Of a stretch of 11,766 bases of DNA, positions 83-9,162 are shown piece by piece. A model generated the notes under the pieces. It ran no database searches and was not told where the DNA came from. It saw nothing but the letters and a program-made list of their open reading frames with translations. Each line of letters begins with the position of its first letter. The first letter of the stretch is position 1. Source of the DNA: Armatimonadota bacterium (GTDB lineage: Bacteria; Armatimonadota; Armatimonadia; Armatimonadales; Armatimonadaceae); contig JAYUUO010000149.1 in the NCBI GenBank assembly GCA_043754515.1, forward strand, positions 1-11,766. Direction: 5' to 3'. A program made the position numbers and the translations under genes.

Positions 83-151
83 GGAGATGTGGTAAGAGTA
101 GTGTTTCCCCGCGCGGAAACGGGTGCCGGGGACGACTACGCAAAAAACGCT

Positions 152-169
152 GATTTATGCAACAAAGCC
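152..169. repeat. IS903-like right terminal inverted repeat
   Basis: 18-mer GATTTATGCAACAAAGCC. It supplies the spurious 'ALLHKSAFFA*' end of ORF 136..1698. Confidence 0.85.
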
Positions 170-700
170 TGGTCAGTGCTCCCGAATAGAACTTGCCACC
201 GGCGAAACGGCAAGTAATTGTCCTTAAACCACATGAGAACGTCGGCAGGCGAGGAGCCGGGCGGCACATCCCCCGGCTGAAGCGGCGGGCAGGTGCTTTG
301 CAATCGCTGACCAGAGGAGGGAGGTAAATGCTCCCGTAGTCCCCGGACCAACTCCTGAGTTACCCACTCCGGGTGGCAGGCGAGATATTCATCGGTCAGC
401 AACGCGGCGACCTTGAGAAGGTCGGCGTGAAAAGTCCCGGCGACCATACCCCGCCAGAACGACTCCGCGCCCTGCTCGATCGGCCCGTACTTCCAAACAC
501 CTCGGGCTAAATCTTGCCATTTCGGGGGAATCGGACGCGGGAAAACTACACCGAAACGACCTTCTAGAAGCCAGCCATGGAGCATCGTTTGCGCGTCATC
601 CGACGAACTGACGCGGTACGCGCTTTGCTCGGGCAAGTTCCCCTCGTCACCCGCCACGTCTCGGCGATTGACCGCAGTAAGGGACGAGACGGGTCGGCGT
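170..700 (-). pseudogene. Internal fragment of a possible PglZ-domain (BREX-like) protein, truncated by the IS903-like element
   Basis: Distal part of ORF 136..1698 (...PPLQPGDVPPGSSPADVLMWFKDNYLPFRRWQ) resembles, from memory, the region preceding the PglZ domain in BREX-like proteins. It is cut at 169/170 by the IS end. The upstream boundary (~700) is approximate. Confidence 0.35.
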
Positions 701-1545
701 CGGCAACCGGCGACCGCGAACTGTTCGGGTCGGCGCAGGAGCAGTTCCCAGTCGGCGATACCCGGCTCCGGCACGAATGTGTTCTCACGATACATCGTGG
801 TCTGGTGATCGTTCATTCGCAAAAATACGCACAACAAAAGGGGCAACACCCCGTCGGTCAACCCGAACTGTGGCGCGGCGAGGTCCGCGAATATCCGATG
901 AACCGGGCGCGGGTCGGGCGTCGCGTCCAGAAGCAACTCCTCTAACTTGCGCCATGTGGGGAGCAGGTTCGCCGGGTCGTTTAGCTCGTCCGGCGGCGCG
1001 AGAAAGTATGCACCGCCGTCACTGTCGCGTTTGTGCAAGCCGGTCGCCGCCAGAACAGATTCGTAGATGCTACGCTCCGGCGGAAACCCCGTGATCCCCA
1101 AATGGGGTCGCGTCACCTTTTCGTTATCGAGCAGTGCCTCAATCAGGTTGCGCCGCGCCACAGCCGCCTGCGACGAGATGTTGCGCCGGTTGATAAGTTC
1201 GTTGCGCAGGGTGGGCGTCCCCATGTAGGTCGCGTCCGCCATATCGGAAAGGGCGGGCAGCAGCGTGGGGACTAATTTTTTCGCGCCGCGATACCAGAAC
1301 TCGACGAAACCGTCGCCGCCCTCGCCCCTCGGCGCGAATAAGCGGAGCCATTCGGCGCGGAACGCCGTTTCCGCCACCTCCTGGCGCGTGCCCAGCTCGC
1401 GGCGGGCGGCGCGGTCGGATCCCACTTCCGGCACATCGGCGAGGACGCGTTCGGCGGCGAGACGATCCAGAGCCGCCTCGCGCAGAGCGTCGCTGTGTGA
1501 CGCGACCGCGACCAGCGAATCGGTAGCCGTAACCCCCGCGAGCAC
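700..1545 (-). pseudogene. Internal fragment of a large ATP-binding protein of the DUF4007/PAPS-reductase-associated (SspC-like) type
   Basis: Motifs DRAARREL, PTLRNELINRRNISSQAAVARRNLIEALL, LGITGFPPERSIYESVLAATGLH, LAAPQFGLTDGVLPLLL and WELLLRRPEQFAV. No N-terminal P-loop or credible start is present, and both boundaries are approximate. Confidence 0.5.
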
Positions 1546-1547
1546 CG

Positions 1548-1761
1548 CGATACAACGAGGGCAGAGGAATCGCCCCAGGCGATTTTCTCGGGCACCCGCA
1601 TTTGGGGTATCGGAACATGGGACGCCGGCCGCTCGACACGATCCGTCTACACCTCCAGGGGGGAAAAGACGCGGCGACAACGGGACCGGGAGCGGCAAAC
1701 GCGGCAGAAGCCGCCCCGATTCTGGCGACCTTTAGTGCAAGACATGAATGTTAATTATGCA
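1548..1761 (+). mobile_element. IS481-family remnant (transposase C-terminus and right end)
   Basis: The + frame from 1548 reads RYNE[GRGIAPGDFL]GHPHLGYRNMGRRPLDTIRLHLQ...SARHEC* (TAA 1752-1754). YNxxxPHxGYRNMGRxP matches IS481-type integrase-core C-termini. The stop lies within an IR-like end (GCAAGACATGAATGTTAATTATGCA), and GC content drops immediately after. Confidence 0.65.
1560..1589 (+). repeat. 30-bp hairpin mini-element, copy A (in-frame insert in IS481 transposase)
   Basis: GGCAGAGGAATCGCCCCAGGCGATTTTCTC. It is 24/30 identical to the minus-strand copy at 7045-7074, and removing it restores YNE-G-HPH spacing. Confidence 0.8.
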
Positions 1762-1923
1762 AATATTCAGCAAGGAAGGCAACCACTCGACTTTGAATCG
1801 CTTGTCACCCCCTGAAAGTCGTACATTGGGTAGGTCTTTTTGATTTCGGTTTCCATCCCAGATTGGTTCGATCAGAGGTATATTCATATTTTGTGGTATG
1901 GTAGAGCAATTATAGTTAGCACA

Positions 1924-3018
1924 ATGCTGACACGCGCATTTCTTTTTCCTAATAAACTATCGCGGATTTTGCTAATGCTTATTTTATTAAATCGTCTTTT
2001 ACAGATACGACTCTACACGATTCTTCTCGCTCTCAGTGTTCTAACGGTTAGTCTATCCCTTTCCGCAAACGCCCAAAGCCCTCTCTATATTACTACCAGT
2101 CCTGGTAGTGCCATCACCGGTTCCTATTCAACGATTACTGTAGGGCGCAATAACTCTAGCCAGAACTTCAGCGGGGTTACCGCCAATATCACTGCGGGCA
2201 CGAATACCGAGCTCGACCTCTATAACAACAGCATTGTTAATTATATAGGTTTAGTCAGTACAGATACCGTTGTAACCAATGATACCAGTACACTTAATGT
2301 ATCGGGAGGCTTGATCAATACCTCCCTTATCACCAACAGTACCAGCACACTTAATATCTCCGGAGGGAGCACCTATACCGTTTTAACTAACAGCACCGCT
2401 AATGCTACCTTTAGCGGAGGATCCGTATATACACTCACTACCAATGGTGGCAGTAGGATGACCATGAGTGGGAGTGCCAACAGCTCCTATGTCAATACCT
2501 ATGGCACCAGTCAACTTGATATTACCAACGGGTTAATTCAGTTCGGTCTGAATGCGGATAATTCGAGCATAGTGAACTTTTTTGGCGGTATTGTTACCTC
2601 TGGTGCAACGACTTCCGCTTCTACCAACAGTACACTCAACATATCGGGCGGCTCGCTCGATACGGTTGAAGGACATGACAGCGCGACAATCAAGATCACC
2701 GGAGGTAGTATCGCCAGCGGACTCTATGCCCATGACACATCGAAGTTTAATATATACGGGAAAAATCTGTCTCTCTCCGAAACTTCAACCACAGCAGATT
2801 ATGTCCAGTTTACGATGCTTGGTACTTTGTCCGACGGAACTAGCCTGGGGACAGGAGTGAGTGTCTACTCTTATAATTTAGCCGACCCTACATCGTCGAT
2901 TGCTCTCTTTTCTATAGTCCCGGAACCGAGTGATCTAATACTTATGGTTTCGGGACTACTTCTTCTGACCGGCCTGGTGTATTCACGCCGAATGGGACGG
3001 CCTAGTCCAACGCCCTGA
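1924..3018 (+). CDS. Secreted PEP-CTERM sorting domain protein with Ser/Thr/Asn/Gly-rich beta-helix-like repeats
   Basis: C-terminal IVPEPS, a hydrophobic helix and basic RR. Signal-peptide-like segment ending LSLSANA|Q. About 19-aa repeats (TNDTSTLNVSGG, TNSTSTLNISGG, STNSTLNISGG, GHDSATIKITGG). Start is ATG 1924 or ATG 1975; TTG 1840 is unlikely. Confidence 0.88.
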   Translation: MLTRAFLFPNKLSRILLMLILLNRLLQIRLYTILLALSVLTVSLSLSANAQSPLYITTSPGSAITGSYSTITVGRNNSSQNFSGVTANITAGTNTELDLYNNSIVNYIGLVSTDTVVTNDTSTLNVSGGLINTSLITNSTSTLNISGGSTYTVLTNSTANATFSGGSVYTLTTNGGSRMTMSGSANSSYVNTYGTSQLDITNGLIQFGLNADNSSIVNFFGGIVTSGATTSASTNSTLNISGGSLDTVEGHDSATIKITGGSIASGLYAHDTSKFNIYGKNLSLSETSTTADYVQFTMLGTLSDGTSLGTGVSVYSYNLADPTSSIALFSIVPEPSDLILMVSGLLLLTGLVYSRRMGRPSPTP

Positions 3019-6000
3019 CGTTCTGCGCTGGGGGTGGGCTCCCCCAGCGACCCCCTTTGTTGCACGGCTAAAACTGATACGTGTTCGGTTATCTGCATTC
3101 GATGTGAAGGTAATCGTATCCACATAGCCGTTCTGCAGGTCGATGGTCAACCGGGTCTTTGCCGCATTCCACGTTGTCGTTGGCAACAACTCTCCCGTGC
3201 GATACGGGAACAGTAGCACCTTATACTGCGGTTTGACCACATTATCCCGCTCGATCAAGACACGACTGGTCGGGACAATGGTTCGTCCGTTTCCGGGGGC
3301 ATTGTTATCGATTCCATAAGTCAACATATTAGCCGCGGTGGTGATGCTGGAGTTTTTTACCTCCAGTTTGATTGTCGGTTGCGAACTGTTATTGATTTCG
3401 GAGACATCGCGTACCAACAGGCGAGCGAGTCCGGTCTGTCCAGCAATTTTGACATCGTCAATCGGCGAGTGATAGACAGTAATGTCGGTCGGGGTTGCCG
3501 TTTTCGTGGTATCGACCGCTAGTGAAGCAAATGCCCGTCCCCCCGTCGAATTAATAAAGGCGTCACGAGTTCCGAAACCGGCGGAACAGTTCATACACCA
3601 CTTGTAGTTTCGTGCTGTATCGTCTTTGTTGAAATCATCCACGACTAGTACATAGGGACGTGCCCCACGCACAAACAGTGCCGAACGTAAAGCATATTTC
3701 ACTGGACGGAACATTGAGGAGGCTTTTATTTTTGCCGAGTATTTTGTATTGAGGTAGGCATGTCGTGAAACCAGGTTCGTAAACAGACCGGGGTACATAT
3801 ATGATGACCAGGGTGATAATGTGTAACTACTTACTCCCCCATAACCGTATCCATAGGCGTCCGTGGCATCTCCTGATATCAGAGTGTAATTATGTCGCGA
3901 ATCCTCCGTCACTTGGAGCAGATGTCCTGATACCGGACGCCCAGGTGTCACAATAGATGGATTATCAAACGCCGCTGAACTCGGACTCTGTCCGATAAAG
4001 CCGGCAGTCGGTGCGTTAGATGCCAGACTTGGTTCCTGAATCAATACCGAGGACTGTGCATCATTGATGGTTATATGGTACCCAGGAGCGATCGCCCAGG
4101 CGCGTCCGAGTGCAAAGAACGAGAAATTGTTCTTCTCGGCATGCAAGTGCCCCGAATCCATCCAACTCGACGCAAAGTAAAACGTAGCGTCACCCTCCTG
4201 CCAGCCGTTTCGAGTAACCGCGACCCCGGATTGTGGATCCAGTTTGATGAGTGGTAATCGCTTGCTGATTGCGACCTGTGGCAGAGTTGTCTTCTGACCA
4301 TTGATTCCTGGATCGAGTCCAAAAATTGCTGTCTGGAAGCAATCATATGGAAATAATGGTGCGTTGGCGGCATACAGATAATCAACTGCCGGGTCATCCG
4401 GGTACATATACTTTAGAAGCAGAATATGTTCGAGGCGGTAGTCGTAGGCATCGCTGTCCTCATGATCGTAAAGATAGATATTAGTTTTGAGGCTAGATAC
4501 AGTCGAGGATGTGATGGTTCGTTCGCCCGGATGGGATTCATGAAGCAGGAGCAACATCGAATTATAGAAATTGCCGGTGACAAACTGATTCTCGCCCCCG
4601 TGGATCGCATAACTGACTGCGGCGGGCCAATAATAGAAGGCACTGAGACCCAAGTAGGCTTCCCGGTTGACCGAAAATCCCCAGGGGGAAACATTGTAGT
4701 CAGTCCAGAGAATCTGTCGCCAGAGATTATCCACATCCACTTTGAGTGCGTTGGGCCATGCCATCGCGTCCGGGTAGGGATCAACCTCAGCGGGAGCAAC
4801 GACACCAGCCGCTGTAAAATCAGGATGCGTCCCTTGACAGGCATAGTATTTTGACTGCCAGGAACTGGTTGAGTCATAGGGACGTGCCCAGTCACCCGCA
4901 CGGATAAAGGTCTGAAAGACATTATACCCATTGGTGTAATAGGAACCCGCTTCGAAGTTGGTAAAGGCAGTATAGACATCGCTGGACACGCCACTCTCCT
5001 CCCCAGCAATCGCCATCTGATTGAAGACCAGATATTCGCTCAGGTTCGCGAAGTCACCGTTCTGATTGTCTCCACGATCCAGACCGCCCTGATGGGGATT
5101 ACCTCCCGGATAGCGTGAACCGGTTGTTCGTCCCCAACTAGTGGCGAAAAGAAAGTCGCGAGTATCCTGTTGCTGGCTGGTTATCATCCAGGGAGCGATA
5201 TAATCATACGCCAGACCAATCTGACTACCGACACCACCCGCACCGCTACCCGGTGTCCAACCGAATTTATCCATTTCACTCACGAAGAGTGGGTCGGTAG
5301 TGGTAAACGTATTGGTTGATCGGTTCCAGCATCGAGCGAACAGTACTCTGCAGTACGCCGATACGACGGTAGCCAGTTGGTTAAACTGTGTTTGTTTTGC
5401 AGACGAAACTTGGCTATGAGGTACAGTCGGATCTTGCCTGATCCAGGCGAGATAACAGGCATATTTGAGTTGTGTCTCAAACTCCGTCATGTTCGAAGCG
5501 GCAGTGGAGGTATTCCCCAGAGTTAGATCTGGCACGGTGCCAGTGTAGTTGTTATTAGCATAGGTTAAGAGCGCCCGGAACAGAATGCCCAGTGCTGAGG
5601 TGGATGTGTATATACCCGTTGTGTCACTAATCTGGGACTGCATCTTGCTGACGGCAGTCGAGGCGATTATGGCGTTGGTATCGCGGGTACTGATCTCGTC
5701 CCAGTCCTGATTTGTGCAGAAGACACGGGGATGATTGAACGCTCCAGGATCAGGAGAGAGAGTTCGGACGGAGGGGGGGGGGAGGATACCAGGAATAGCC
5801 GTAAGTGCGTCGAGCTTACCCGTAGCATCCTTCAGAGCAGGTATAGTCGACCAGACGTTGACCCAGGTATGGCGTACAACGGTATTGCCTCCGTCGGTTG
5901 CGGTCAGTTCGATCTCATAAACGCCGGGTGCGGAGAATGTCGCGGGAGTCGCTGCAGAGAAGGCATTGAGAAAAGTGACGGTTCCCGTTGTGGCGTTCGG

Positions 6001-6270
6001 ACTCAGATATTCCTGCAGTTGTTTCCACTTATAGGACGTTGGTGTGAAATTCAATGGGCTAGCGAGGAGATTAACTGTAGTCGTGGCTACGGTCTGGAAA
6101 ACGAGAATTGGGCGGTCAACACTGATGGACACCGTTGGGTTCGGAACAACATCCGCCTGATATAGACTAATCTTTTCGTTCTGTGCCTGGGTAGGATTTT
6201 GTATCAGACCAATCAGAGCAAGTAGCGAGATGCTGGCGGAAAAGGATTGTAAGAGACGCTTCGAAGACAT
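2983..6270 (-). CDS. Large secreted protein: PKD/Ig-like domain plus heparinase II/III-like (polysaccharide-lyase-like) region
   Basis: ATG 6270 with upstream AGGAAGG RBS. Signal peptide ending NPTQA|Q. PKD-like motif YKWKQ...FSAPGVYEIELTATDG. HPRVF motif, then GVAVTRNGW...GHLHAEKNNFSFFALGRAWAIAPGY, typical of Hepar_II_III-like domains. Substrate unknown. Confidence 0.7.
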   Translation of the reverse strand: MSSKRLLQSFSASISLLALIGLIQNPTQAQNEKISLYQADVVPNPTVSISVDRPILVFQTVATTTVNLLASPLNFTPTSYKWKQLQEYLSPNATTGTVTFLNAFSAATPATFSAPGVYEIELTATDGGNTVVRHTWVNVWSTIPALKDATGKLDALTAIPGILPPPSVRTLSPDPGAFNHPRVFCTNQDWDEISTRDTNAIIASTAVSKMQSQISDTTGIYTSTSALGILFRALLTYANNNYTGTVPDLTLGNTSTAASNMTEFETQLKYACYLAWIRQDPTVPHSQVSSAKQTQFNQLATVVSAYCRVLFARCWNRSTNTFTTTDPLFVSEMDKFGWTPGSGAGGVGSQIGLAYDYIAPWMITSQQQDTRDFLFATSWGRTTGSRYPGGNPHQGGLDRGDNQNGDFANLSEYLVFNQMAIAGEESGVSSDVYTAFTNFEAGSYYTNGYNVFQTFIRAGDWARPYDSTSSWQSKYYACQGTHPDFTAAGVVAPAEVDPYPDAMAWPNALKVDVDNLWRQILWTDYNVSPWGFSVNREAYLGLSAFYYWPAAVSYAIHGGENQFVTGNFYNSMLLLLHESHPGERTITSSTVSSLKTNIYLYDHEDSDAYDYRLEHILLLKYMYPDDPAVDYLYAANAPLFPYDCFQTAIFGLDPGINGQKTTLPQVAISKRLPLIKLDPQSGVAVTRNGWQEGDATFYFASSWMDSGHLHAEKNNFSFFALGRAWAIAPGYHITINDAQSSVLIQEPSLASNAPTAGFIGQSPSSAAFDNPSIVTPGRPVSGHLLQVTEDSRHNYTLISGDATDAYGYGYGGVSSYTLSPWSSYMYPGLFTNLVSRHAYLNTKYSAKIKASSMFRPVKYALRSALFVRGARPYVLVVDDFNKDDTARNYKWCMNCSAGFGTRDAFINSTGGRAFASLAVDTTKTATPTDITVYHSPIDDVKIAGQTGLARLLVRDVSEINNSSQPTIKLEVKNSSITTAANMLTYGIDNNAPGNGRTIVPTSRVLIERDNVVKPQYKVLLFPYRTGELLPTTTWNAAKTRLTIDLQNGYVDTITFTSNADNRTRISFSRATKGVAGGAHPQRRTSGRWTRPSHSA
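3026..3049. repeat. GC-rich hairpin at the convergent junction of the two cargo genes
   Basis: CGCTGGGGG-TGGGCT-CCCCCAGCG, a perfect 9-bp stem just after the PEP-CTERM stop and inside the tail of the long ORF. Confidence 0.7.
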
Positions 6271-6373
6271 TGAAATGTCCTTCCTACACATGGATAGAGC
6301 AATAAATCAGGCAAGCACCAATGTTGCTAGCAAACGATAACTGCAAAAAATACCAGTACTCAAAGCGATATAT

Positions 6374-6405
6374 TCTAGGTGGGGTGACGAATCACCCCAC
6401 CTAGA
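6374..6405. repeat. Perfect 14-bp inverted repeat (TTCG loop on the minus strand)
   Basis: TCTAGGTGGGGTGA-CGAA-TCACCCCACCTAGA, about 100 bp upstream of the lyase-like gene start. No U-tract. Confidence 0.8.
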
Positions 6406-6653
6406 CAGTGATACCTGATTCCAGTAAACAGTATATCAAATTTCGGAAGATAAGTAATCGTACATATTTAGGTTAGGCTTATCTCGGGCATCTTGAACGG
6501 GCTGAAGGCGATCCGGTACTCGGTCCCGACGGACTGTAGAATCGCGTTGACCGTGCCGTGCAACGCCTCTTTGTTCGCGTAGTCCTTCGCCCGCAACCAC
6601 TCATACTTGAGTCTCTTCCACAGCGTCTCCACGATGTTCAGGTGCGGCGAGTA

Positions 6654-6678
6654 CGGGTTTTTGCTCCGCAAAATACCG
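6654..6678 (-). repeat. 25-bp hairpin insertion splitting the FLPP|YSP motif
   Basis: Minus strand CGGTATTTTGC-GGA-GCAAAAACCCG. Removing it gives FLPPYSPHLNIVE in one frame. Confidence 0.85.
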
Positions 6679-7044
6679 AGGCGGCAGGAAGCCGATGTAT
6701 AAGCCGCGCTCCTCCCACCCCGCGCCGTGCCCGCGCACCATCTTCTTGTGAACCGACGCGTTATCCAAAACTACCACCGTCAATCTCTTCAGACCGAGCG
6801 AGAAGGCGTCCATCTGCTCCGCGAGCCAGTCCGCCGTCACCGCCTCCTCGCTAGTGAAGGAGGAGCAAGTGTTACTTCGGGACAGCAGGGCGAAACAGTT
6901 CAGTCGCCCCCCGTGGCTACAAGGTACGGAGACTTCTTCCCCCTTGAGTTGCCACCCCGACGCTATGCACGGCCGCAGGCTGACCCCGCTCGCGTCCCCG
7001 TAAAGCACGTCTATGTGTCCTTGTTCGTACAACTCCTCCCACTC

Positions 7045-7074
7045 AAGAAAATCGCCTCAAGCGATTTCTTTGCC
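7045..7074 (-). repeat. 30-bp hairpin mini-element, copy B (in-frame insert in IS630 transposase)
   Basis: Minus strand GGCAAAGAAATCGCTTGAGGCGATTTTCTT translates to GKEIA*GDFL within CECLR|EWEELYEQG. Confidence 0.82.
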
Positions 7075-7150
7075 CCGCAAGCATTCGCAACGCAGGGCGT
7101 ACACCTCCGGCGACGGCTCGCCGCGCACCACCCGCCTTATCCTCTTGTGA

Positions 7151-7176
7151 GTGCGTAGTGCTTCGCACTACGGCAC
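7151..7176 (-). repeat. Hairpin (probable ~22-bp insertion) just downstream of the IS630 slippery site
   Basis: Minus strand GTGC-CGTAGTGC-GAA-GCACTACG-CAC: an 8-bp perfect stem with a GC-GAA-GC loop. It places TAG in the orfB frame and lengthens the KK...HKRIR spacing. Confidence 0.7.
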
Positions 7177-7896
7177 GGCCAGCCTTTTTTTAGGAACCGC
7201 TTCAAGGTGGGCAGACTGAACTCCTTGTTCAGCTCGCCTTGCAACTCTTCTCTCGCCATCCGCAACCGCTGACAATTATCTCCGGCCGCCTTTTTGACGG
7301 CGGGCAGGTCGCCGTCCTGCCGCAGTATCGGCTTGCGACCGCGCCCTTTGGCGACCGCCAAGCCTTCGATCCCTTGCTCGGCGAAGCGGACCATCCAGTC
7401 GTTGATGGACATTTCGCAGCAGCTGAGTTCGTCGGCGACGTCCACCGAGGTTCGTCGCTCGCATTTGAGCAGGATGGCCTGACAGCGCATCCGGTAGGAG
7501 GGCGTGCGGCCGTACTTCATCCCTTTGACAAGTGCCGCTTTTTGTATGTCCGTGGCGGTCACGGTTTTGATGCGTGGCATAGTGCATACAGTCTAACACA
7601 TTTCTACGCAAGTGCTTATCTACTTTAGACACAAATTAAATGACATCAGAGAGATTCAAAACACTACGCGCGACGCTCGTTCTAGATACTTGTGCCAAGA
7701 TTTATTTTTCCAGATTAAGTAAGCCACAATTTTTCGCTTGGCGAAATTAGGATAATCATTCAGACCACTGGGTTATCGTGTCAAACCAACAACTCCACTC
7801 TGGCATAGCCCAATTCAGGTGATAACTTTTTCCCGTTAAGTCCACCACCTGTTCTTTGGTGTGCTTAAAATCATTAGAAATAGCGAACCTACCGGA

Positions 7897-7961: not shown

Positions 7962-8966
7962 CTATATCAATTTCTTGCGCCTCTCCTTTTTGCCCATCAC
8001 GATCCCTTTGACGATTCCGACTTCGGCGTGCATGTCGCGTATGAAGTCGGCGTCGAGTTTTGTATACATGAGTGTTGTCTTCGTTTCGCGGTGGCCTGCG
8101 ATCTGTTGTGCCGCAAGAAGGTTGTGCTTGGCGAGTCGGTTCAGGCTGAATCGGCGTAAGCCGTGGAGTGTAATTTCGTCGGACAGTTTCGCCCAGCGGA
8201 TTATTCGCTTCGTGGACTTGAAGAAAATACCCTCCCCGATTCGCCCTCCATACTTGCTAACAAAAAGCCAGCCTTCGTCTTCTCCTGCTGAGACGTCTGA
8301 CATGAGCCGTTTACGGATTTTTAGCCACTCGTCCAGCGCGTCCAGCCACTCCTCACTAACCGGCAGTGTGCGAGGGCGTTTACCCTTCGCCTCTCGGATG
8401 AGTATCTGCCGGTCACTGTGCTGTACGTCGCCCACTTTCCGATTAAGCATTTCCCCGATGCGACATGCGCTGTCGAGTAGTCCGAGTAGAATCGCATAAG
8501 CGCGGTCGCGGTGGAAAATACGTTTCGTGATCGGATAAAACCGCACGGCCGGATTCTTTATCAGATTCCAGTGGTCACGCACTGCCTGCAGAAGATTTAG
8601 AACTTCTTCCTCCGAAGGCATATACCTTGCTGGTTCGGGGGTGTTCATGACCTTGTATTCCGCGAGAGGTGAGCGGTCGAGAATATCGTTACGACTACAC
8701 CAACGGAAGAATGCTTTGGCGGCAACCGCGTCGTGTTTGACAGTGGTTAGCGATTTACCTCCCTGTTGCCGGAACACGAGATACCTATCGAGATGCCGCT
8801 TGCCAAACTCGCCAAATCGAATCAGGCTTTCGTCCGTCCACAGCAAGAGTTGCCGCAACTGGACGTCATAAAAGCGCACTGTCTTTTGTGTGCGGGTCGC
8901 TTGGACGTGGAGAAGATACTCCTTGACTGCCTCGTCCCAGGTCGTTTCGGTGGAAACTGATGCCAT
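7962..8966 (-). CDS. Tyrosine recombinase/integrase (XerC/D-like, 334 aa)
   Basis: Catalytic set R (CRIGE), K (AKGKRPR), HxxR (HGLRR), H...Y (AGHRETKTTLMY). N-terminal SAM-like domain. ATG 8966 preceded by AAAGGGG. Located immediately 3' of a tRNA. Confidence 0.92.
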   Translation of the reverse strand: MASVSTETTWDEAVKEYLLHVQATRTQKTVRFYDVQLRQLLLWTDESLIRFGEFGKRHLDRYLVFRQQGGKSLTTVKHDAVAAKAFFRWCSRNDILDRSPLAEYKVMNTPEPARYMPSEEEVLNLLQAVRDHWNLIKNPAVRFYPITKRIFHRDRAYAILLGLLDSACRIGEMLNRKVGDVQHSDRQILIREAKGKRPRTLPVSEEWLDALDEWLKIRKRLMSDVSAGEDEGWLFVSKYGGRIGEGIFFKSTKRIIRWAKLSDEITLHGLRRFSLNRLAKHNLLAAQQIAGHRETKTTLMYTKLDADFIRDMHAEVGIVKGIVMGKKERRKKLI

Positions 8967-9045
8967 CTGAGCCCCTTTACTGGTATGTTGCCAACAGGTT
9001 AGCAACAAATATTAACAACAGCAAGAGTCTGAAAATGGCCTAACG

Positions 9046-9089: not shown

Positions 9090-9162
<73 letters not shown>

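Follow-up and report, generated by a model that had tools for sequence, protein, structure and literature searches.

The closest known kind of element to the one described here is the class of small dispersed repeats (SDRs), of which SDR1-8 were reportedly described by Elhai et al. in 2008 from Nostoc and its relatives. These repeats are said to be about 21-27 nt long, to occur in pairs of empty and filled sites without flanking direct repeats, to show compensatory changes and to nest in other elements, minitransposons included. To our knowledge, how elements shorter than 30 bp move has been an open question since the SDRs were described. A 30-bp hairpin was found in two copies, A and B, in a stretch of 11,766 nt from an Armatimonadota bacterium (GenBank assembly GCA_043754515.1, contig JAYUUO010000149.1), which is called the window and is the whole of contig C149 in an assembly of 5.13 Mb (313 contigs, 92.7% complete). 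Both copies belong to a genus-level family of small mobile hairpins, and the 30-mer is best read as a non-autonomous, SDR-like element.

IS608 has a top-strand hairpin with an extra-helical T, inserts 3' of a tetranucleotide, and leaves a donor that is resealed without gain or loss (PMC3201880, PMC5027513). In the IS200/IS605 insertion sequences (IS) and in the repetitive extragenic palindrome (REP) systems, a guide tetranucleotide lies 5' of the hairpin. SDR5 of Nostoc inserts in HIP1 (PMC4390886), and translational bypass cassettes need matched take-off and landing codons (10.1101/2022.08.31.505936). In the excerpts returned by literature searches, neither a mechanism for such elements nor a description of this family was found.

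An iterated weight matrix detected 41 loci of at least 20 bits in the whole genome and none of at least 14 bits in the reversed genome; profile searches added shorter and worn copies, resulting in a working list of 55, about five of them partial or worn. The 30-mer family measures 29-30 nt, with further copies of 28-29 nt, and has the consensus N-CAGAGAAA(T/C)CGCC-nnn-GGCG(A/G)TTTTCTTG. Its pattern is present in two of 40 relatives, both of the same genus, and in 3 of 41 genomes when the source is counted. One other genome was matched by the exact pattern among 185,579 species genomes, again an Armatimonadota; five metagenome loci with the pattern represent three distinct sites, and viral contigs held no exact match. 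A preliminary description, made from the window's letters, had proposed a mobile, structure-conserved, SDR-like element of 30 bp with an unknown mobiliser, a proposal borne out by these many further copies and by the empty and filled pairs described below. The length, the identity of 24/30 between A and B and the peptides GRGIAPGDFL (A) and GKEIA*GDFL (B) were all reproduced. Its coordinates, 1560-1589 and 7045-7074, hold as given and lie one base off the family register (1561-1590 and 7044-7073), the two registers being equivalent at A and B because a G is shared. On contig C143, a tandem pair and nested copies of the 30-mer were also seen; the pair (L038:2041-2100) stands head to tail, its inner parts being nearly mutual reverse complements.

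Sites without the insert were found for both copies. The IS630 paralogues C125, C45 and C183 have a 10-residue gap at the position of copy B, and the 10 residues are missing from IS630s of other genera that span this site (L149, L150, L151, L154, L155 and L156). At A's site, an IS481 homologue is 10 residues shorter than paralogue C269 of A's host; intact homologues of both families are without the 10 residues. Gaps of exactly 30 bp were further observed in the RHS repeats on C112, in the C127/C300 pair, and between C156 and C163/C238. Assembled contigs of four sequencing runs from four studies were then aligned to the IS630 of the window. In run X6, record 21 spans 6922-7153 with no other letters and 30 gaps, leaving B's site empty; judging from the depth of 2.52 and 1.62 (of 3.04) in the adjoining pair of bins, the gap lies at 7044-7073. 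In run X5, like X6 from a separate study, record 11 spans 6814-7165 with one other letter and 30 gaps, again with B's site empty, while record 12 is an 84%-identical variant in which the site is filled. Among the matches listed for runs X8 and X10, B's site was uncovered. The empty allele at B may be either a pre-insertion or a post-excision state.

The copies are concentrated in mobile DNA, a feature of the family that the preliminary description did not contain. By profile or BLAST, 23 of the 55 lie in transposase or IstB genes, the host families being IS630, IS481, IS3, IS701, IS1, IS256, IS21, ISAs1 and an IS5-type. Five more were put in IS DNA by a weak BLAST match or by sequence motifs, which gives 23-28 of 55; the host on C157 had no match by BLAST and is a putative IS by its motif. 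DNA homologous to the IS hosts that were hit amounts to 39.6 kb, or 0.77% of the assembly, corresponding to an enrichment of 54-66 fold, which may be too high because IS families never hit are missing from the denominator. Most other copies are on prophage-like contigs (with terminase, tail, RuvC and primase matches), in RHS repeats or in a multi-copy nuclease-like gene. Only one of the 55 lies in a long open reading frame (ORF) of typical codon usage, though such ORFs make up 57% of the assembly; one further copy, by a GH25 lysozyme gene, is in an open frame missed by the ORF filter. Outside the source genome, transposase hosts were recognized by Pfam or alignment at five of nine distinct sites. 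Both window copies read in the sense direction and in the same codon phase (phase 1); as a rule this does not hold for the family, since independent in-gene sites are 11 sense and 17 antisense (p=0.34) and all three phases are found, and the orientation and phase common to A and B are coincidental. The lack of a sense-strand bias points to a DNA strand rather than to mRNA. A stop was added by five of the 24 in-gene copies tabulated.

For the junctions, same-site paralogues were dropped, which left 40 independent sites for the duplication test and, after two more were dropped, 38 for the motif test. Flanking matches of 2 bp occurred at 3/40 sites and of 3 bp at 0/40, so duplications of at least 2 bp are not beyond chance, a result on which a miniature inverted-repeat transposable element (MITE) was rejected as the identity of the 30-mer. 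The element's first base varies (T19, G10, A6, C5 over the 40 sites). Measured against local composition, a strand-specific target motif C-N-R-S^N-N-Y was found, with C at -4 in 30/38 sites (p=1e-9), R at -2 in 34/38 (p=2e-7), S at -1 in 32/38 (p<=0.001) and Y at +3 in 31/38 (p=8e-5); this motif replaces the G|G(A/G)G context noted earlier at A and B. Held-out copies of 28-29 nt agree, with C at -4 in 9/11 and R at -2 in 9/11. The tetranucleotide before copy A, GAGG, lacks the C and is off-motif. At the sites of sister hairpins (n=80), A or G stands at -2 in 57 and Y at +3 in 62, with a weaker preference for C at -4 (38). A guide within the loop was rejected: the top element-flank correlation reached z 2.97 against a null maximum of 3.48, and loop-flank matches equal those of shuffles (3.95 vs 3.89). 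Donor-flank memory was likewise not accepted (r 0.04-0.10, p 0.02-0.24 over six windows), one nested pair being among its drivers.

The inner stem covaries. In 32 aligned copies (30 distinct), six pairs are changed on both sides, a number reached by 0-1 of 500 shuffles and far above that of slid controls, in a test that is inflated by the kinship of the copies. Compensation within the stem had been proposed from A and B, and it stands for the inner stem; the proposed G5-C30/A5-T30 pair is uncertain, since two registers of the outer stem are equally good (95.8% vs 95.6% of cells paired). Sister families unrelated in sequence have in common the register in which C2 pairs with G30 while G6 and T29 bulge out, and because the sisters share that fold, the bulged-pyrimidine register is favoured for the disputed base. 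Conserved features are the C-G closing pair and the T that precedes the final G. Loops are seen in either orientation, and the sense and antisense folds of the element are equally stable. The sister hairpins measure 21-31 nt and have one bulged fold in common; a fold grammar, N-C[stem]-T-G, whose stem holds AAA/TTT, gave 175 matches of 20-31 nt versus 19 in the reversed genome. A 22-nt sister occurs in the relative G003. Nesting of sisters is seen within each other and within a multi-copy MITE (about 184 bp), and a 22-nt sister lies in a TA-flanked MITE. A blind census of hairpins recovered mostly other repeats, and a generic hairpin pattern was too noisy over the 41 genomes to chart the superfamily, although a few paired matches in genome G006 hint at a wider range.

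Several loci with sister hairpins were recorded in passing. The MITE of about 184 bp (C84:16517-16700 and dozens of other loci) has terminal inverted repeats and TA ends and consists of small hairpins nested in each other; shorter, stepwise forms of it occur on C305, C59, C35 and C130. On C225, tandem pairs of a 27-nt sister in opposite orientation (7183-7235 and 7980-8032) bracket a phage gene with collagen repeats. In G006, another genus of the family, a 26-nt hairpin at C358:6378-6403 and four similar ones likewise have a C-G closing pair and a bulged T.

The host of copy B carries two further hairpin inserts that had escaped the preliminary description (Table 1). That description had named transposase genes as the hosts of both copies, which is correct for the IS630 of copy B and for the IS481 type of copy A, the latter surviving as a 3' remnant of about 210 bp rather than as a whole gene. 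IS481-family transposases are matched by its paralogue C269; the fragment itself gave no match to Pfam or NCBIfam profiles, and neither copy A nor copy B matched Rfam.

Table 1. Hairpin inserts of the window, their host genes and the target of copy B
Feature	Position	Strand	Remarks
Host of copy A, 3' remnant of an IS481-family transposase	1551-1775	+	blastn to C269/C46; BLAST to IS481 records
Copy A, 30-bp hairpin element	1561-1590	+	Family register; paralogues C269 and C46 are filled at this junction too
Host of copy B, an IS630 element	6460-7620	-	343 codons open without the inserts; three hairpin inserts are its only frame lesions
Sister hairpin insert, 25 bp	6654-6678	-	FLPP^YSP; seven copies at two kinds of site in the source genome
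Copy B, 30-bp hairpin element	7044-7073	-	In-frame TGA added; X5 and X6 hold the empty allele
Target tetranucleotide CGGG, 5' of copy B	7074-7077	-	Fits C-N-R-S
Sister hairpin insert, net 26 bp	7151-7176	-	Ends uncertain by a few bases; near a slippery site; identical in C262, absent in L029

The same junctions are used repeatedly. At B's junction, three IS630 variants (C149, C262 and L029) all hold the 30-mer, and its in-frame TGA is present in every one. The three elements show 1-2 differences in 30 bases and the same letter at 8/8 variable positions, an agreement found in 0.7% of 741 random pairs, while their hosts differ to within a few bases of the junction, with synonymous divergence (dS) of 0.53-0.85 and a nonsynonymous-to-synonymous ratio (dN/dS) of 0.11-0.20. 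Likewise, C163 and C238 have a same-site, TAG-bearing copy in common. The same-site copies of C74/L003 and of an RHS trio show 4-7 base differences, which fits plain inheritance. In an IS630 tree of 15 pieces, two of them just 55 residues long, monophyly of the copies that carry the 25-bp sister is rejected (approximately unbiased test, p=0.002), so its junction was hit more than once or precisely emptied more than once. The 30-mer's own three hosts fall together in a clade with 77% support, and a single old insertion followed by later precise loss is therefore possible.

In summary, the 30-mer is a mobile element without a gene, belonging to a genus-level family of bulged hairpins of 21-31 nt whose sites lack duplications of two or more bases. 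By analogy, an HUH (Y1-type) enzyme that reads the shape of the hairpin may move it in trans as single-stranded DNA, a reading to which we give about even credence. It is suggested by the likeness to IS608, namely the lack of duplication, the clean empty allele, the bulged-T hairpin, the strand-specific tetranucleotide and the indifference to gene direction. In such a route, one strand would fold while the DNA is transiently single-stranded, and the enzyme would cut behind the terminal TG and on the 3' side of the C-N-R-S tetranucleotide. The donor would be resealed and the 30-mer pasted into another exposed strand, as in IS608. The filled transposase genes would mostly be dead, and the same junction would be hit again in diverged paralogues, with a filled paralogue as the probable donor.

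Several observations weigh against the HUH route, the first of which is that no enzyme was linked to the element. A guide of the form G[TG][AG]G within 0-2 nt 5' of the hairpin is present in only 8/47 copies. Several pairs of diverged paralogues mismatch at one junction base, and these mismatches, together with the variable first base, count against a clean cut-and-paste, which predicts none; a swap of one target base per insert was not seen at copy B and is compatible with several noisier pairs. No lagging-strand signal appeared by local GC skew (20/44), a weak test on short contigs. One hairpin serving as both ends is without precedent in the literature consulted, and the model has no explanation for the same variant at same-site copies. 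Furthermore, Y1 genes occur in 37/41 genomes searched versus 3/41 for the 30-mer, and no hairpin flanks the four Y1 matches of the source genome, 30 Y1 loci of relatives or 12 orthologue loci. A single-copy Y1 gene on C71 has orthologues in genera in which exact hairpin families were not found.

The search for a mobiliser covered several classes of enzyme. A RAYT (REP-associated tyrosine transposase), Y1 or reverse transcriptase (RT) gene flanked by the same hairpin, as envisaged in the preliminary description, was not found in the assembly, which is 92.7% complete. The C71 gene (L136:1501-1983) stands right after a trpB-like gene with no flanking repeats, has orthologues of 37-67% identity in 13 relatives of the same family, and is a domesticated transposase. 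No such hairpin lies near the IS605-like element on C244. For the IS110 transposase (PF02371) the incomplete assembly gave no match where a control found 6/14, and for that of IS91 (PF04986) it gave none with a control that was silent everywhere. ORFs between two hairpins, considered as mobiliser candidates, turned out to be unremarkable phage or IS genes. There are two RT genes, L035 on C197 with an Avd-like neighbour and L034 on C263 behind a SWIM/BRCT-like gene; judged from these neighbourhoods, they look like a diversity-generating retroelement (DGR) type and a retron type, respectively.

It is unlikely that a tyrosine recombinase instead joins the folded single strand to degenerate double-stranded sites, as integron integrases do with attC, so that the variable junction base would be a remnant of strand exchange. 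Conservation of shape rather than sequence, the bulged bases, the single variable junction base and the loosely symmetrical sister target (R at -2, Y at +3) would suit such an enzyme, and the genome has 14 tyrosine recombinase matches. However, none of the 14 loci is bracketed by hairpins, with stray copies at three as in prophage DNA; 21-31 nt is short for two recombinase binding sites of the attC kind; and the flanks of sister sites do not pair site by site, flank-to-flank pairing being not enriched.

There is also a small chance that no targeting exists, the element inserting wherever its short motif occurs and selection clearing useful DNA until copies in dead IS and prophages are left. 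The motif is indeed short and common, prophage copies are often intergenic, and the enrichment in IS DNA carries the upward bias given above. Yet copies in the 42% of the assembly outside long typical ORFs and IS do not outnumber those in the 0.8% made up of IS, three inserts stand within 1.1 kb of an otherwise undamaged IS630 in the window, and selection leaves the repeated use of the same junctions without a reason.

Movement by way of a small RNA, brought into DNA by reverse splicing or reverse transcription, seems quite improbable. The two RT genes and a stem register with G-U pairs speak for it, and an RNA carrying flanks could account for re-entry at the same junction; but neither RT is flanked by a hairpin and both look like retron or DGR types, the copies show no sense bias, duplication or tail, the folds of both strands are equally stable, and flank similarity tracks element similarity only weakly (r ~0.1). 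It is very unlikely that the inserts are harmless micro-introns or ribosome-bypass cassettes in functional transposase genes inherited filled, as the single clade of TGA-bearing IS630 variants under low dN/dS, the otherwise intact IS630 of the window and the shared TAG-bearing copy of C163/C238 might suggest, given the near absence from long typical-codon ORFs, the insertion in both orientations, a further nonsense codon in C262, the empty allele, the non-monophyletic 25-bp hosts, and 0/5 stop-bearing copies with matched take-off and landing codons. A bypass cassette of the T4 gene 60 or byps kind, marked by such codons, a stop directly behind take-off and the sense strand, was rejected on the codons and on the two orientations.

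Beyond the HUH route itself, one may speculate that the hairpins mark an undescribed system for switching off mobile DNA, in which an enzyme pastes removable hairpins of 21-31 nt preferentially into transposase and phage DNA and copies them to the same junction of diverged paralogues without their flanks, amounting to homing by a 30-base element that has no endonuclease gene itself; we regard this as improbable. If transposase genes are truly targeted, bacteria would have in this a new means of holding IS elements in check. In practice, these inserts account for disrupted IS and phage genes in the genus and are bound to mislead annotation. The question lends itself to oligonucleotide assays, with defined ends, a defined asymmetry of the active strand, a bulged-T fold common to unrelated sequences, a target motif and one exact pair of empty and filled sites. 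Genome engineers would take an interest in an enzyme able to insert and remove a 30-nt cargo scarlessly.

The remainder of the window was also surveyed. A tyrosine integrase gene (7962-9008, -) adjoins tRNA-Lys(CTT) (9090-9162, -), and the DNA to its left, with IS remnants and two low-GC genes, resembles an integrated island. An ORF at 2983-6291 (-) encodes a secreted-looking protein of 1102 residues, and another at 1840-3018 (+) a protein with a tail resembling the PEP-CTERM motif, both without a Pfam match. The ORF at 136-1550 (-) looks ATPase-associated, has no Pfam or NCBIfam match, and loses its 5' end to the IS481 remnant; the ORF's frame is stop-free through copy A, antisense to it.

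Compared with known systems, the 30-mer resembles IS608 in its imperfect hairpin with an extra-helical T, its strand-specific upstream tetranucleotide, the absence of duplication and the scar-free empty site. It differs from IS200/IS605 in being one hairpin without a gene, instead of two hairpin ends around tnpA/tnpB, and in its degenerate target motif, no guide sequence having been identified; the single hairpin does not agree with a non-autonomous IS200/IS605 derivative, which would have two subterminal hairpins matching a cognate IS. With REPs, their REPIN doublets and RAYTs it shares short, dispersed, lineage-specific palindromes that sometimes lie in genes (PMC6006769, PMC3733652, PMC3116915), whereas it is without a GTAG-type foot (8/47), a CGTC tag, doublets and a flanked Y1 gene, and lies mostly inside mobile genes where REPs are extragenic. 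Membership in REP/REPIN-RAYT failed on the guide foot, on the flanked Y1 gene and on extragenic location (PMC6006769, PMC3733652), with 23-28 of the 55 copies inside IS genes. Rickettsia palindromic elements are likewise palindromic inserts in coding sequence with lengths that are multiples of three, but their length is about 150 bp and ordinary metabolic genes tolerate them (PMC10969869), while the 30-bp element hardly ever lies in ordinary genes and in some cases brings in a stop.

With the SDRs of Nostoc and other heterocystous cyanobacteria, a different phylum, the 30-mer is likened by features and not by sequence. The SDRs reportedly share its size class of about 21-30 nt, with 29-30 nt in this family and 21-31 nt in its sisters against the reported 21-27 nt, as well as several families with a common fold and compensatory changes, an unknown mobiliser, the lack of flanking duplication, and nesting in one another and in a MITE. 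Unlike the Nostoc SDRs, the 30-mer has the target C-N-R-S^N-N-Y instead of HIP1, is concentrated in transposase genes and prophages, and re-uses junctions in diverged paralogues.

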